DNA of 41,989 nucleotides, from the IMG/VR virus record IMGVR_UViG_2778261105_000011; one strand, 5' to 3'. The position numbers and the translations under genes are program-made. The notes under the pieces were generated by a model. The model did not search any database and was not told the origin of the DNA. It saw nothing but the letters and a program-made list of their open reading frames with translations. This DNA is from a virus (taxonomy: Duplodnaviria; Heunggongvirae; Uroviricota; Caudoviricetes). Position 1 is the stretch's first letter. Every line of letters starts with the position of its first letter. Positions 1 to 41,989 of this stretch are shown here, piece by piece.

Positions 1-1248
1 ATGGCACTGAATATTCCATTCAGAAATGCGTACTATCGTTTTGCATCCAGTTACTCATTTCTCTTTTTTATTTCCTGGTCGCTGTGGTGGTCGTTATACG
101 CTATTTGGCTGAAAGGACATCTAGGGTTGACAGGGACGGAATTAGGTACACTTTATTCGGTCAACCAGTTTACCAGCATTCTATTTATGATGTTCTACGG
201 CATCGTTCAGGATAAACTCGGTCTGAAGAAACCGCTCATCTGGTGTATGAGTTTCATCCTGGTCTTGACCGGACCGTTTATGATTTACGTTTATGAACCG
301 TTACTGCAAAGCAATTTTTCTGTAGGTCTAATTCTGGGGGCGCTATTTTTTGGCTTGGGGTATCTGGCGGGATGCGGTTTGCTTGATAGCTTCACCGAAA
401 AAATGGCGCGAAATTTTCATTTCGAATATGGAACAGCGCGCGCCTGGGGATCTTTTGGCTATGCTATTGGCGCGTTCTTTGCCGGCATATTTTTTAGTAT
501 CAGTCCCCATATCAACTTCTGGTTGGTCTCGCTATTTGGCGCTGTATTTATGATGATCAACATGCGTTTTAAAGATAAGGATCACCAGTGCGTAGCGGCA
601 GATGCGGGAGGGGTAAAAAAAGAGGATTTTATCGCAGTTTTCAAGGATCGAAACTTCTGGGTTTTCGTCATATTTATTGTGGGGACGTGGTCTTTCTATA
701 ACATTTTTGATCAACAACTTTTTCCTGTCTTTTATGCAGGTTTATTCGAATCACACGATGTAGGAACGCGCCTGTATGGTTATCTCAACTCATTCCAGGT
801 GGTACTCGAAGCGCTGTGCATGGCGATTATTCCTTTCTTTGTGAATCGGGTAGGGCCAAAAAATGCATTACTTATCGGAGTTGTGATTATGGCGTTGCGT
901 ATCCTTTCCTGCGCGCTGTTCGTTAACCCCTGGATTATTTCATTAGTGAAGTTGTTACATGCCATTGAGGTTCCACTTTGTGTCATATCCGTCTTCAAAT
1001 ACAGCGTGGCAAACTTTGATAAGCGCCTGTCGTCGACGATCTTTCTGATTGGTTTTCAAATTGCCAGTTCGCTTGGGATTGTGCTGCTTTCAACGCCGAC
1101 TGGGATACTCTTTGACCACGCAGGCTACCAGACAGTTTTCTTCGCAATTTCGGGTATTGTCTGCCTGATGTTGCTATTTGGCATTTTCTTCTTGAGTAAA
1201 AAACGCGAGCAAATAGTTATGGAAACGCCTGTACCTTCAGCAATATAG
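1..1248 (+). CDS. MFS transporter of the LacY / oligosaccharide:H+ symporter family (probably host gene flanking the prophage)
   Basis: 415 aa ORF starting with ATG at position 1; polytopic hydrophobic profile; overall similarity in length and motif layout to LacY-type permeases (for example the ...FDQQ..F... and GxxxGPxxNALLIG-like segments). Family call is from memory, not a search. Confidence 0.7.
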   Translation: MALNIPFRNAYYRFASSYSFLFFISWSLWWSLYAIWLKGHLGLTGTELGTLYSVNQFTSILFMMFYGIVQDKLGLKKPLIWCMSFILVLTGPFMIYVYEPLLQSNFSVGLILGALFFGLGYLAGCGLLDSFTEKMARNFHFEYGTARAWGSFGYAIGAFFAGIFFSISPHINFWLVSLFGAVFMMINMRFKDKDHQCVAADAGGVKKEDFIAVFKDRNFWVFVIFIVGTWSFYNIFDQQLFPVFYAGLFESHDVGTRLYGYLNSFQVVLEALCMAIIPFFVNRVGPKNALLIGVVIMALRILSCALFVNPWIISLVKLLHAIEVPLCVISVFKYSVANFDKRLSSTIFLIGFQIASSLGIVLLSTPTGILFDHAGYQTVFFAISGIVCLMLLFGIFFLSKKREQIVMETPVPSAI

Positions 1249-34984: not shown

Positions 34985-35374
34985 CTAACATTTTCTTTTT
35001 ACTTTTCCAACAAAAGCTTTGGTTGAATCCATATTTCCATAACCGGAAATGGTTTTTGACATTAAAACTGTTCCAGTAGGATGTATTACCCATGAGTCGA
35101 TAACGCGTTGAGTTTCGCCATTCGCGCCGATTCCTATGATGGAGTTTTTAGACAATGCTTTGTAAGCCATGCCGCCCGCATCTGTCCCAGAATATGTGAT
35201 GCTGGCATCTTCACCGCTTGTCTTAATGATGAATGTTCCACTAAAACCATCTTCTTCCGGATGGAAATTATTTCGTTCTGAATAGCTTATTCCGCGCATA
35301 TCTCCAACGACCCAGCACTCTGCTGTAGCCCCAAAAGATATGAATAAGAACATAGCAGCAAGAAATTGCTTCAC
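34985..35374 (-). CDS. Secreted (periplasmic) protein of unknown function, moron in the sieA position
   Basis: GTG start at 35374 preceded by TAAGGAGG; N-terminal signal peptide KQFLAAMFLFISFGATA; track ORF 34985..35449 is the extended form. Confidence 0.5.
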   Translation of the reverse strand: MKQFLAAMFLFISFGATAECWVVGDMRGISYSERNNFHPEEDGFSGTFIIKTSGEDASITYSGTDAGGMAYKALSKNSIIGIGANGETQRVIDSWVIHPTGTVLMSKTISGYGNMDSTKAFVGKVKRKC

Positions 35375-35438
35375 ACCAACCTCCTTAGTTTTGAGCAGGA
35401 TACCAGATGATAATGTGTAGTTGGAGTAGCGCGGTTGT

Positions 35439-35530
35439 AATGCAAGCATTTTGTTTTAGTTTTATGCTTGCTTGTATGTGTGCACAGTGTATATAATGCA
35501 AGCATAAATCACAACAAAGGTGCTTGCATT
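35439..35530. promoter_or_regulatory. Divergent promoter region with four copies of an 8-10 bp motif TGCAAGCA / TGCTTGCA in alternating orientation (35441, 35466, 35498, 35522)
   Basis: Direct reading; the last copy overlaps the ribosome-binding region of the downstream gene. Confidence 0.45.
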
Positions 35531-38065: not shown

Positions 38066-40135
38066 ATGACAGATTCAATAAATGCCAATGTTGTAGTGAG
38101 CATGCCTTCTCAACTCTTCACTATGGCGCGTTCTTTTAAAGCGGTTGCCAATGGCAAAATTTATATCGGTAAAATTGACACTGATCCGGTAAATCCTGAA
38201 AACCAGATTCAGGTTTATGTGGAAAACGAAGACGGTTCTCACATTCCTGTTTCGCAACCAATCATCATTAACGCTGCTGGTTACCCGGTATATAACGGGC
38301 AGATTGCCAAGTTCGTAACTGTGCAAGGCCATTCTATGGCTGTATATGATGCGTATGGTGCGCAGCAGTTCTATTTTCCTAATGTGCTGAAGTATGACCC
38401 TGACCAACTAAGACAGGAGTTAGATGGTGTTGGTGGGGTTAATTTAGTAAATGGGGCATTACATGGTGCCATGGATTCAGATCCAAATGTTGGTTTTAAA
38501 ATCACCACATCCTCAGGTGAGATTTACGAATATGCTCCGGGAATTACAGGTCTTGCCGATGGGTTTTCGGTATCAGCATCACAGTTATATTTAACAAGGA
38601 ATGGCCTATCTTATAAATACTCTTCACCTCATAACACACTGGTTTGGCCATCTCAGTATATCGATACGAGTGCTGATGCGAAATATTCAATTGAATCTAT
38701 TATGGCGCACGGATTGAATGTGGACCTTAACGGAACTACAGTTAAAGCCAGCACCATCAATATTACGAAAGATTTGATTAATGGTGAAATTGTTGCTATC
38801 GGAGATGAAGGATCATTTATAACAGTAAACTCATGCATGCTTAACAATATTAAAGTTAACTGCAATATGATGGCAATTAGAAGGCCTGTTCATATCAAAA
38901 CAGGGGCTGTTAATCCAGTAGTTAAGAATGTTGATGTTTTTGATAGTAATGGTTCTCAACTAACTTATGGTATTTTCATAGATGCAAATTCTGTATTGAA
39001 TTTTGTCGTTGATAACATATCAATACATAATATTACCACCATTGGAAATGGTATTCAGGGTGATGTAATTGGGCCATGTCGAGGGATTCTTGTAGGAACG
39101 GCACTTGATCCAGTACCATCAAATGATGATGAGGTATCAAGTGGAGTTATAAGTAACGTAAGGATTTACAAGCTAAACCCTTGGGAAGATGCTGATGGTG
39201 TTGTTATTCAGATTTACAACTCATCATCAAATATGCTCAGCGGGAAGAAAATAAAGGTTGATGGCGTTTATACTTACAATGCACTTAAGCGAGCAGTCAA
39301 AGTTCAGGCCAATGATGTTACAGTAACAAATGTATTTGCGGTTTGTGATGACGCCTCAGCAACTAACCCTATGTATAGTTGTGTTAGTGTTTATGGTAGT
39401 TCCTGTGTTGTTCGTGGTGTTAGTGGGCGAGGAAGGATTGGCAATGGTGTTGATTCATCTGATGGGTTCAATACTATCAGTGATGTTTATCTTAAGACGA
39501 CAGCAACCTATGAGCTAAGCGCAGGTCTACAGATAACTTCCGGGCAGGTAAACGCGAATAACATTCACTCTGAAGGATCAAGATACATAGTCGCAATTCG
39601 GGCAGTTAATAACACAACACCGTATGTAAATATTAATGGCATATATGGGCAAGGTTATGACGGGGCGATTTTGTTAGAAATCAGATACGGATTTAATATT
39701 GGTAATGTTTACTTAAGTGATATTTCAGTATCAAGTTCAAATCCCACAAGGTCTTCATTCTTCTTTGATATATTATCAGGTGGAAGTATATCTCTGATCA
39801 GCGTGTCAGACGTCAAGAGAATCAGTCAGGCATTTAACGGAGCAGATATAAACATTTCTGGTGGGGTTGCAAAAGCTATTGTTAAAAATTCAGTTTTTGA
39901 GAGTGGTTCGTCAAGCGTTGGTGTATCAATGACAACTGGTACTTTAGTTGCATCAAATATATCAGCACAAAGTAAATCTTATGCTGTCAACGCTGTACAA
40001 ACCACAAATTCACTTATAAATAACATTGATGGAATCGTTAGGGTTGATAGCACAACCAACAGTAATGTCGGCCTTTACAGAGGGATTACCTCTGTTGGGA
40101 CTAACACAGGACTGAAAACTGTTTTCTATCAATAA
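38066..40135 (+). CDS. Tailspike protein: P22-type N-terminal head-binding domain with a divergent beta-helix receptor-binding / O-antigen depolymerase domain
   Basis: First ~120 aa ([61 protein letters not shown]...) match the P22 gp9 N-terminus; the rest is S/T/N/G/V-rich as in beta-helix tailspikes but is not P22-like; low GC. Confidence 0.85.
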
Positions 40136-40741
40136 TTATATATAACCTTTTGATGTTTTATATGATGTTATCTTGGCAGGGACGCCAGCAATAGTGCAAT
40201 TTCCATCTTTAAAATCTTTGTTAACGACTGCATTCGCGCCTATTGCACAATTGTCACCTATAACTATCTTTCCGTAAATTTTTGCTCCAGGACCAATGTA
40301 GCAATTATCACCAATTACAGGGGATTCAAGTCCTGCTCCAGCTGATGTGCCAATATTCGTACCTACATGAATTCGGCAATTTGCACCTATCCTGGCTCCT
40401 GCGTTAACAACTATGTTACCATAATGTGGTATTGATAACCCTGGACCAAAGGTATTGATAGGTATTGAAAATCCAAGTTTCATTTGAATTTTGCGTAACC
40501 TAAGTCTTGTAATCAGAATTAAAACTTTATTTCCTTTGCAATTAGTAAGATACTCCAACCTCCTTAGCAATCTAAGGAATCTCCATATATCGTTGAATAT
40601 TATATTTTTTAACCTTGACCCCTGAAGCCTCATAGCCTTTTCGTCAAGGAGAAGGTATGACTTGTAATCTTCCTTGCTGCTTATCATTCTATGCTCGCCA
40701 GAAATGTGAATAGGTGTAAAGATTAAGAAAAACCTCAACAT
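40136..40741 (-). CDS. Hexapeptide-repeat (left-handed beta-helix) acetyltransferase of the CysE/LacA/NodL type; probable lysogenic-conversion (surface polysaccharide O-acetylation) gene
   Basis: C-terminal half ...GANCRIHVGTNIGTSAGAG...PVIGDNCYIGPGAKIYGKIVIGDNCAIGANAVVNKDFKDGNCTIAGVPAKI... shows hexapeptide repeats and the ...AGVPA.. motif; very low GC; convergent with and abutting the tailspike stop. An alternative start at 40687 is possible. Confidence 0.65.
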   Translation of the reverse strand: MLRFFLIFTPIHISGEHRMISSKEDYKSYLLLDEKAMRLQGSRLKNIIFNDIWRFLRLLRRLEYLTNCKGNKVLILITRLRLRKIQMKLGFSIPINTFGPGLSIPHYGNIVVNAGARIGANCRIHVGTNIGTSAGAGLESPVIGDNCYIGPGAKIYGKIVIGDNCAIGANAVVNKDFKDGNCTIAGVPAKITSYKTSKGYI

Positions 40742-40831
40742 TTTGCAAGATTAAGGTTAATCATAGTAAATGACAGTTGATCTGAATGCGCCTTAAGACT
40801 ACTGTGTATGCATGCAGTGATGTAGGTGGCA

Positions 40832-41989
40832 CTACCCCTCCTTTTCATCAAGCCAATCCGCCCACCACTGCATCATTTCTCTGCGCTTATCGAGATACTG
40901 AGCATGGTTGTAAATACCGCGCACAGATCCACCGTTGGCATGTGCCAGCTGCACTTCAATAGCGTCAGCAGGCCATTCGTGCTCGTTCATAATCGTGCTG
41001 AATTCATGCCTGAATCCGTGACCGCTTTCCAGACCTTCATAGCCGATTTGTTTGATCACAAGCAATACCGCGTTCTCGCAGATTGGCTTCTTCTTATCGT
41101 TGCGCCCGGCAAAAACAAACTCTGAGACTGGTTTGGTGATTGAGCTTAGCGTAGTGAGAAGTTCAACCACCTGGTCTGACATCGGGACCACATGAATTTT
41201 GCGTCCCTTCATCACACTGGCGTCGATGGTGATAATCCTGTTTTCAAAATCGACGTTCTTCCATAGCATGGAACGAAGCTCTTTCGTTCTTAGGGCTGTA
41301 TAACGTAAAACTTTGGTCGCAATGAGCGATACGATGCTTCCTGAAAATGTTGCCAGTGCTTTGTTGAATGCAGGGATCTGGTCTGCTGGAAGAAACGGGA
41401 AGTTCTTCTTGCGGTATCCTTTCATGGCATCTGCAAGGTCAGGTGCCGGGTTATATTTAGCCCTGCCGGTGACAATAGCGTAACGGAAAACCTCGCCGCA
41501 TCTTCTGCGGGCTTTGTTGGCTCTCTCCATTGCACCGCGATCTTCAAATCTGCGGATTACTTCAAGAAGTTGCATCGGCTCAATATCCTGAATCTCAAGA
41601 CCGCCGATGATGGGTAAAATGTCGTCATCAAACATTTTGGCAAGTTCAGTTGCATAGCCTACTGACCAGACTTGCTTCTTGTGCTCGTACCATTCCTTGT
41701 AAATCGCACTAAATGAATTGTTGTTAGACGAAGCCTTTTTCGCCTTTACCGGATCGATGCCAACCGAGATGTCTTTCCTCGCAGTCCATGCCTTATCCCT
41801 TGCTTCCTGCAAAGTCATAAGCGGATATTTTCCGACAGTCAGGATTTTCTCCTTACCGTCAATCTTGTAGCGAAGCTGCCATACCTTTTTCCCTGATACA
41901 GGGACATAAAGGTACAGGCCATTACCATCGAGTAGGCGGTATGGTTTTTCTTTCGGCTTTGCTGCTTCAATCTGCTTAACGGTGAGCAT
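40832..41989 (-). CDS. int: Tyrosine integrase of the P4 / IntS-like family
   Basis: 385 aa; N-terminal LTVKQIEAAKPKEKPYRLLDGNGLYLYV... (P4-type arm-binding domain) and C-terminal catalytic region with R...H.R...Y-type motifs (GHGFRHEFST...RGIYNHAQYL); the ATG is the last three bases of the window. Confidence 0.9.
   Translation of the reverse strand: MLTVKQIEAAKPKEKPYRLLDGNGLYLYVPVSGKKVWQLRYKIDGKEKILTVGKYPLMTLQEARDKAWTARKDISVGIDPVKAKKASSNNNSFSAIYKEWYEHKKQVWSVGYATELAKMFDDDILPIIGGLEIQDIEPMQLLEVIRRFEDRGAMERANKARRRCGEVFRYAIVTGRAKYNPAPDLADAMKGYRKKNFPFLPADQIPAFNKALATFSGSIVSLIATKVLRYTALRTKELRSMLWKNVDFENRIITIDASVMKGRKIHVVPMSDQVVELLTTLSSITKPVSEFVFAGRNDKKKPICENAVLLVIKQIGYEGLESGHGFRHEFSTIMNEHEWPADAIEVQLAHANGGSVRGIYNHAQYLDKRREMMQWWADWLDEKEG

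Follow-up and report, generated by a model that had tools for sequence, protein, structure and literature searches.

What is a hexapeptide-repeat acetyltransferase gene doing tail to tail with the tailspike gene of a P22-like prophage? The question arises from a 41,989-nucleotide stretch of viral DNA, IMG/VR record IMGVR_UViG_2778261105_000011 (Caudoviricetes), which is the window of this report. A complete P22-like prophage fills it, with Ead/Ea22, an S24 repressor, a DnaB-type helicase, terminase and the P22 portal and P22 coat genes, and Pfam also finds an immI-type region with a Bro-N/P22_AR_C antirepressor. At its right end the genes run in the order tailspike (38066–40135, plus strand), convergent hexapeptide-repeat open reading frame or ORF (40136–40741, minus strand; the gene itself takes up 40136–40687) and intS (minus strand). 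We think it probable, if not strongly so, that the enzyme works in the cytoplasm to O-acetylate an O-antigen, bringing about lysogenic conversion and so masking the receptor of the spike beside it. That answer builds on the anatomy of the locus, the mobility of the two genes as a cassette, the association of the cassette with one host O-type and the loss of CysE features from the enzyme.

The 689-residue spike comes in two parts. Residues 1–115 (38066–38410, plus strand) are a P22-type head-binding domain, the part that attaches the spike to the particle. Pfam Head_binding (PF09008) covers residues 4–114 with an E value of 6e-65, sequence matches in the PDB to the Sf6, P22 and HK620 spikes are confined to the N-terminal ~120 residues, and the DNA of this part is 88–94% identical to HK620, CUS-3 and Sf6. 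It is widespread, being found in 1131 of 5426 complete Escherichia coli genomes, the set used for every genome count below. PGAP names the spike in three E. coli genomes after this part, as a ‘phage head-binding domain-containing protein’. The remaining ~575 residues (38409–40135, plus strand) match no Pfam, NCBIfam or PHROG family. As in P22-like tailspikes, they form a right-handed parallel beta-helix receptor-binding domain, presumed to be a depolymerase, and similarity to the tailspikes of P22, Sf6, HK620 and CUS-3 is undetectable in its sequence. The original prediction, made from the DNA letters, had drawn the border of the P22-type domain at about residue 115, called everything beyond it unrelated to P22 and proposed a swapped receptor specificity. 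It read the protein correctly: the receptor-binding domain has been replaced at the head-binding junction.

With what was it replaced? The homology search that the prediction had proposed for this domain returned only a very small family, 14 clusters among 5.8 billion proteins. Among isolates, Agtrevirus Gloob of Shigella boydii has the nearest relative, one of its spikes matching at 51%. Members of the family are carried on varied N-terminal adaptors: the P22 head-binding domain, the T7 tail-fiber domain PF03906, Tail_spike_N (PF18668) and others without a Pfam match. A contig scan with the receptor domain gave 80 pattern matches and zero confirmed relatives.

Base composition ties the foreign half of the spike to the acetyltransferase gene. 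The stretch 38400–40741 has a GC content of 37.8%, the lowest of all segments of its length (2342 bp) across the 42 kb, where the mean is 46.7% (sd 3.3). GC at third codon positions is 28–29% in this module against 53% in int, so the low-GC module that had been predicted is compositionally foreign by codon usage as well. The acetyltransferase gene was said to be lower still, and it is, by a marginal gap (37.0% against 38.1% for the C-terminal domain of the spike). Nucleotide comparison by blastn sets the borders of the module. Two other phages, L003 and L007, are 87–88% identical to it from 38434/38588 to exactly 40688, and L009 is 67.5% identical over 38409–40609; in all three the flanks are unrelated. 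What emerges is a mobile low-GC cassette at 38409–40688, made up of the receptor-binding domain and the acetyltransferase. In L003 and L007, which are phages of 54–55% GC, the cassette has a GC content of 40–42%; in L009 and L011 it matches its surroundings (32–36%). A low-GC, Morganellaceae-type origin is likely, on account of the GC of the cassette, a partial relative from Proteus vulgaris and a cpxA/trmL-type locus, to which we return below.

The company kept by the receptor-binding domain was compared across every context that could be retrieved. L003 is an integrase-bearing podovirus-type prophage whose 780-residue spike has a different N-terminal part (P0122, a relative of the same length, carries the T7 tail-fiber domain PF03906); its receptor-binding domain is 89% identical to ours and abuts a 183-residue enzyme that is 86% identical. 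In an Enterobacter hormaechei prophage (L007/L008) the figures are 87% and 95%, the 183-residue enzyme again abutting. L009, a low-GC prophage whose spike has the Tail_spike_N adaptor, has a receptor-binding domain at 64% and a 183-residue enzyme at 75%, with a 4-nt overlap between the genes. At greater distance the slot changes hands. The lambda-like siphovirus L010 (receptor-binding domain 61%) has in the convergent position a 615-residue Acyl_transf_3+SGNH membrane acyltransferase of the OafA type, and L011 (58%), on the same backbone as L009, has an Acyl_transf_3+SGNH gene there in two fragments. Two lytic-type contigs (L012 and L013) and Agtrevirus Gloob, with receptor-binding domains at ~50%, have no acetyltransferase; after the homologous spike, both contigs encode a conserved 363-residue Exo_endo_phos (endonuclease/exonuclease/phosphatase) protein (L012 8542–9633, L013 8928–10019) and then have a Peptidase_S74 tail-fiber gene. 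Receptor-binding domain and acetyltransferase travel as one cassette among at least four unrelated temperate phage backbones, and two enzyme types with no homology to each other can occupy the slot beside the receptor domain. Because the two genes are adjacent and tail to tail, spike domain and enzyme recombine into unrelated backbones as a single 2.3-kb cassette, its joints lying at the junction of adaptor and receptor domain on one side and at the start codon of the acetyltransferase on the other.

That makes the exact limits of the acetyltransferase gene important. At the spike end they are simple. The TAA stop of the spike occupies 40133–40135 and the TTA that is the TAA stop of the acetyltransferase on the minus strand occupies 40136–40138, so the genes converge and abut as predicted, with stop codons side by side (40133–40138) rather than overlapping. 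The other end is less obvious. PGAP places the start at the ATG at 40687, giving a protein of 183 residues (WP_000625801.1). Sixty homologues begin at the methionine of this start, the close ones with MI.S..., and homologous loci have in-frame stops 9–39 nt upstream of it; the DNA homology to L003 and L007 ends, as we have seen, at 40688. No Shine-Dalgarno sequence precedes the ATG at 40741. The 18 codons at 40688–40741 (minus strand), missing from homologous loci, are a spurious extension of the ORF. The hydrophobic start ‘MLRFFLIFTPIHI’, read from the first ATG in the prediction and taken there as grounds for keeping membrane association in play, was rejected as part of the protein on the evidence of the PGAP start, the homologue starts, the upstream stops and the end of homology. 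Membrane anchoring via the first ATG was rejected with it, the hydrophobic stretch belonging to the non-conserved extension only; membrane association through the N-terminus is unsupported because that extension is an ORF artefact. No tandem repeats of the kind that make a NeuO-like phase-variation tract occur in or upstream of the gene. At the C-terminus (40136–40150, minus strand) the protein reads ...KGYI. The tail of CysE docks into CysK through a C-terminal Ile. That our enzyme shares this residue is probably a coincidence, because the stretch before it shows no conservation with the CysE tail.

Having the right protein, what kind of enzyme is it? Pfam Hexapep (PF00132) matches at 46.8 bits against a cut-off of 27, which bears out the predicted hexapeptide acetyltransferase. 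A model of the monomer (pLDDT 80) opens with four helices at the N-terminus and continues as a left-handed beta-helix, and Foldseek matches it to CysE structures with a probability of 1.00 and TM scores of 0.7–0.75. CysE is the closest solved relative both in sequence (E 5e-11) and in fold (TM ~0.75), and a catalytic histidine, His88, invariant in 61 homologues, aligns with CysE His158. PGAP labels the protein ‘serine O-acetyltransferase’. The features particular to CysE have gone. Pfam finds no SATase_N domain (PF06426), which is present in the genuine cysE of L004, a locus described below. The scores against the CysE profiles are 62.9 for TIGR01172 (cut-off 210.65) and 44.4 for NF008349 (cut-off 397). 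In an alignment with a genuine CysE of 273 residues, the catalytic histidine alone persists: Asp92, Asp143, Asp157, Arg192 and His193 of CysE, which we take to line the Ser/Cys site, are replaced by Asn28, Ser74, Pro87, Glu121 and Ser122, and close homologues have the same or similar replacements. These losses speak against a serine acetyltransferase of central metabolism, one of the outcomes that would have undone the original prediction.

Nor does the enzyme fall into a neighboring family. Its best NCBIfam match is EpsC (NF041874), at 79 against a cut-off of 150, over residues 44–194 of the 201-residue ORF (26–176 of 183). WcaB (TIGR04016) scores 38.3 against 194.65, and Acyl_transf_3 (PF01757) gives no match in Pfam. 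By the tests applied it is outside the CysE, EpsC, WcaB, NeuO and AT3 (Acyl_transf_3) families; in architecture it resembles EpsC and WcaB, without being an equivalog of either. What it does match is PHROG 2154 (E 1.7e-45), a family annotated as ‘unknown function’. Its own family is large, with 5379 matches, mostly of 180–200 residues, and a contig scan with the acetyltransferase alignment had at least four distant loci among the matches listed.

The relatives of the enzyme in chromosomes offer a hint of what it does. A 72% homologue (P0004, in locus L004) stands at the end of a cluster of the O-antigen type, as its last gene; other genes there encode Ugd, Wzx, epimerases, a glycosyltransferase of family GT4 and an AT3-SGNH acyltransferase. 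The cluster adjoins trmL, its flank runs trmL-yefM/yoeB-cysE-gpsA-secB, and the genuine 273-residue cysE stands 1.2 kb from the 72% homologue. Providencia O-antigen clusters occupy the same position (bioRxiv 10.1101/2022.04.05.486866). Directly upstream of the homologue is the AT3-SGNH membrane acyltransferase (612 residues, L004 5885–8552), so that this one cluster holds the same two acetyltransferase types that alternate beside the spike domain in phages; its AT3 domain shares 49% identity with that of the phage enzyme in L010. A 59% homologue is found inside a Wzz/exosortase/Wzy exopolysaccharide (EPS) cluster. Among phages, more distant relatives stand directly after tail-fiber, tail-fiber-assembly or baseplate genes in the unrelated Citrobacter phage phiNP (L034 1281–1835), Hafnia phage yong2 (L035 4800–5345) and Streptococcus phage 9871 (L037 4839–5366). 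These are 35–42% identical over local alignments and are annotated ‘serine acetyltransferase’; the one in phiNP has been listed as ‘serine acetyltransferase, fitness’ (PMC6456863). Because all three follow tail-fiber or baseplate genes, receptor-masking enzymes of this sort may be a general phenomenon.

Which glycan, then? A clue comes from the hosts. Receptor domain and enzyme occur together in only three of the complete E. coli genomes (KD602, K99B and JNE132847), and the enzyme without the receptor domain in none of the 5426. All three have the same ‘O76 family’ wzx/wzy cluster in the galF-gnd region, with identical Wzy accessions, and such a cluster is present in just five genomes of the set. 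FORC_042 and MB98 are O76 strains without the cassette. A naive hypergeometric calculation gives P = 4e-10 for the overlap between cassette and O76, in which the three genomes are not independent. JNE132847 is a serologically confirmed Shiga toxin-producing E. coli (STEC) O76:H7 from a case of hemolytic uremic syndrome (HUS), isolated with anti-O76 beads (PMC10790564). The O76 repeat, according to a passage in PMC10304059 citing Perepelov 2013, has four sugars in a linear chain, two of them GalNAc, one GalNAc3Ac (~70% acetylated) and one GlcA. KD602 has two O-antigen clusters in tandem (NZ_CM145715.1 1837641–1861969): galF and gnd flank a wzx/wzy cluster of the O76 type, while wzzB and his flank a wzm/wzt mannan cluster of the O8 type.

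From these strands we can assemble a mechanism, inferring substrate, site of action and exclusion effect from comparison. The 183-residue protein would be an acetyl-CoA-dependent trimer that acts on a surface polysaccharide and not on serine. Its most likely substrate would be an O76-type O-antigen (the GalNAc, GalNAc3Ac, GlcA repeat), acetylated as a nucleotide sugar or as the undecaprenyl-PP-linked O-unit, before flipping and polymerization. The genetically coupled tailspike domain would bind, and probably cleave, the same glycan; a shared target is the simplest explanation for the repeated linkage of enzyme and spike domain across backbones and for the replacement of the enzyme by another acetyltransferase type. 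In a lysogen this spike would recognize or cleave the glycan less well once the acetyl group was in place. Superinfecting relatives would be excluded, and released progeny would not be wasted on lysogenic cells. NeuO, acting on polysialic acid, offers a parallel, as do, from the periplasmic side, the Oac/OafA-type enzymes.

Several points weigh against this reading. K99B and JNE132847 are alike in their alleles of gnd and his (KD602 differs), which erodes the independence of the O76 association, and the O8 cluster of KD602 makes its displayed glycan uncertain. JNE132847, a lysogen, still reacts with anti-O76, so any modification leaves the serotype unabolished. The passage on the O76 structure mentions one O-acetyl site only, the GalNAc3Ac, and no second, prophage-dependent one (PMC10304059). 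The O76 cluster has a hexapeptide acyltransferase of its own, of 189 residues and remotely akin to the prophage enzyme (E 6e-4), and this host enzyme could explain the single reported site. The third of the three chromosomal contexts examined (P0020) is no obvious polysaccharide locus. Finally, the expression signals are poor: the Shine-Dalgarno match is a weak GGCGAG, and scanning for promoters and terminators turned up nothing credible as a promoter of the acetyltransferase gene, the sole promoter-like match overlapping the start codon. As a separate matter, the idea that the prophage enzyme is a copy of the host O76 acyltransferase was rejected, the similarity between them being only remote.

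If O-antigen conversion is not the answer, what else might the gene be for? The rival that survives best, which we regard as unlikely and still worth taking seriously, keeps the glycan O-acetyltransferase and changes its target or its beneficiary: colanic acid, enterobacterial common antigen, the lipopolysaccharide (LPS) core, a capsule or O8 mannan might be modified, or the host might gain immune or protist evasion or serum resistance. WcaB/EpsC-type relatives, the NCBIfam matches of our enzyme, act on exopolysaccharides, the 59% homologue stands in an EPS cluster, and KD602 carries colanic acid as well as O8 clusters. O76 O-acetylation has been suggested to affect uptake by amoebae (PMC10304059), and the gene has been kept in decayed prophages, as described next. 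Against all this, the linkage of the enzyme to one specific receptor-binding domain is tight and recurs across backbones, in distant cassettes the other acetyltransferase type takes the place of the enzyme, and among the complete E. coli genomes the cassette is confined to those with an O76 cluster.

How well the gene is kept bears on the next rival, that it is an unselected passenger from a low-GC (Morganellaceae-type) phage, poorly expressed or not at all. The exact 183-residue protein occurs in 777 sample blocks, and near-identical copies are found in Citrobacter amalonaticus and C. farmeri. Ten contexts were read. All ten are P22-like prophages with the same spike (98.7–99.7% nucleotide identity) and an intact acetyltransferase, and in eight of them the neighbors are int, yfdC and mlaA, the arrangement at argW. 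In K99B (L001 1–3715) the prophage has been cut by IS100 together with BREX and DEAD-box gene fragments, and in L025 (7352–8955) the spike is split by an IS3-family insertion; acetyltransferase and int are intact in both. An enzyme left intact in a decayed prophage and beside a split spike suggests selection in the lysogen. In two E. coli assemblies, L024 and L029, spike and acetyltransferase adjoin host genes (a tor-like molybdopterin/cytochrome/response-regulator set in one, dacD-sbmC in the other) with no adjacent integrase, layouts that suggest other insertion sites or rearrangements. The weak Shine-Dalgarno sequence, the lack of a clear promoter and the foreign GC and codon usage are what a passenger would have. 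We nevertheless find it improbable, given the abundance of the exact protein, its integrity in 10 of 10 contexts even where prophage or spike is disrupted, its 72–95% conservation across four backbones and a cassette boundary kept at the start codon.

More doubtful again is a reversal of roles, in which the enzyme makes the receptor form that the spike needs, so that only the acetylated glycan is recognized or cleaved and susceptible or adhesive cells are created. Some tailspikes do require O-acetyl groups for binding, and the same genetic linkage would be expected. A prophage, however, gains nothing by improving its own lysogen as a receptor, the lytic phages with the same domain family lack an acetyltransferase and yet need receptors on naive hosts, and the NeuO and Oac precedents mask. 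Least probable of all, to our minds, is a true serine O-acetyltransferase, or some other small-molecule or xenobiotic acetyltransferase serving as an auxiliary metabolic or fitness gene: the PGAP name, the closeness of CysE in sequence and fold and the phiNP listing favor it, against the missing SATase_N domain, a score three-fold under the CysE cut-off, five lost Ser/Cys-site residues, a genuine cysE beside the 72% homologue and receptor-binding genes next to the enzyme in every phage examined.

Masking of an O-antigen receptor is therefore the reading we keep, and we would venture something bolder on top of it, though at a little under an even chance. The locus may be a self-contained ‘recognize-and-mask’ cassette that hops among temperate backbones and genera, its slot filled by two types of acetyltransferase. 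Ours would then be the first phage-borne cytoplasmic acetyltransferase of the left-handed beta-helix kind shown to convert a Wzy-dependent O-antigen, and the widespread phage ‘serine acetyltransferase’ genes beside tail-fiber genes (PHROG 2154) would be a general, overlooked class of receptor-masking enzymes.

The rest of the window can be described briefly. A 144-nt AT-rich spacer (40688–40831, minus strand, GC 37.5%) separates the stop of int from the start of the acetyltransferase. The tyrosine integrase IntS (40832–41989, minus strand; Pfam Phage_integrase, Phage_int_M and Arm-DNA-bind_3) marks the end of the prophage, and in the related E. coli genomes KD602 and K99B intS adjoins the tRNA-Arg gene argW and yfdC. 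At the opposite end is a gene for a LacY-family sugar/proton symporter (1–1248, plus strand; Pfam LacY_symp, E 1e-193), which presumably belongs to the host and borders the second attachment site; it may be cscB, from the sucrose locus close to argW. A 154-residue ORF (34985–35449, minus strand) with a hydrophobic, signal-like segment separates the ejection-protein genes from the immI region. It has no match in Pfam or PADLOC and could be another moron or exclusion gene. PADLOC found no defense-system match for the acetyltransferase, the spike or two neighboring ORFs.

Why does this matter? A specific spike tied to O76 strains is a testable phage–host pairing, and O76 is a minor STEC serogroup that includes a HUS isolate. 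The predicted prophage-dependent O-acetylation could affect serotyping, phage susceptibility and depolymerase-based tools. That recognition and masking of a receptor can be passed on as one unit across phage families matters for the co-evolution of host range and superinfection immunity. And labels such as ‘serine acetyltransferase’ or ‘unknown function’, in hundreds of genomes and several published phage annotations, hide a probable role in modifying surface glycans.

How does all this compare with what is already known? The closest likeness is NeuO of CUS-3, a soluble left-handed beta-helix O-acetyltransferase that modifies the polysaccharide targeted by the endosialidase spike of its own prophage (PMC3046976); according to the title of a 2026 paper (PMC13001214), its acetylation raises phage resistance. 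In both cases a P22-like (Lederbergvirus) prophage encodes a soluble hexapeptide enzyme in the gap that separates its tailspike gene from int. The original prediction had held that P22-like conversion genes are membrane Oac-type acyltransferases or gtrABC, which CUS-3, itself P22-like, contradicts. Its interpretation was thus largely right and overstated as unusual: the comparative context supports a soluble beta-helix acetyltransferase as a candidate for glycan modification, and NeuO is the precedent. The two enzymes are nonetheless different. Their similarity is remote (BLASTP E 3e-4 over 50 beta-helix residues); NeuO is of the maltose/galactoside-acetyltransferase-like branch, whereas ours folds like CysE and has a helical domain at its N-terminus; neuO is co-directional with its spike and phase-variable through a heptanucleotide repeat, whereas our gene is convergent and has no repeat tract; and NeuO modifies a group 2 capsule, whereas the likely target here is a Wzy-dependent O-antigen.

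The Sf6 Oac and OafA-type AT3-SGNH enzymes share the genomic slot and the presumed role of acetylating the receptor of the spike, and they take the place of our enzyme in L010 and L011. Acyl_transf_3 acetyltransferases are integral membrane proteins that act on the periplasmic side; ours, with neither an Acyl_transf_3 domain nor a conserved hydrophobic segment, should act in the cytoplasm. CysE shares the left-handed beta-helix and the catalytic histidine and differs by its SATase_N domain and the five site residues. The short CysE-like enzymes EpsC, WcaB and P0004 have the same length and architecture (72% identity to P0004, 27% to E. coli WcaB); those sit in biosynthetic clusters, while ours is phage-borne. 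The literature we searched contained no treatment of a short CysE-like enzyme in O-antigen conversion, of an acetyltransferase cassette coupled to a receptor-binding domain or of a link to O76. A lysogenic-conversion acetyltransferase in the classic slot is of a known kind. Three things appear to be new within that literature: that a short left-handed beta-helix enzyme resembling CysE probably serves in O-antigen conversion, that it is coupled to one particular receptor-binding domain in a cassette able to cross backbones, and that the cassette is linked to O76.

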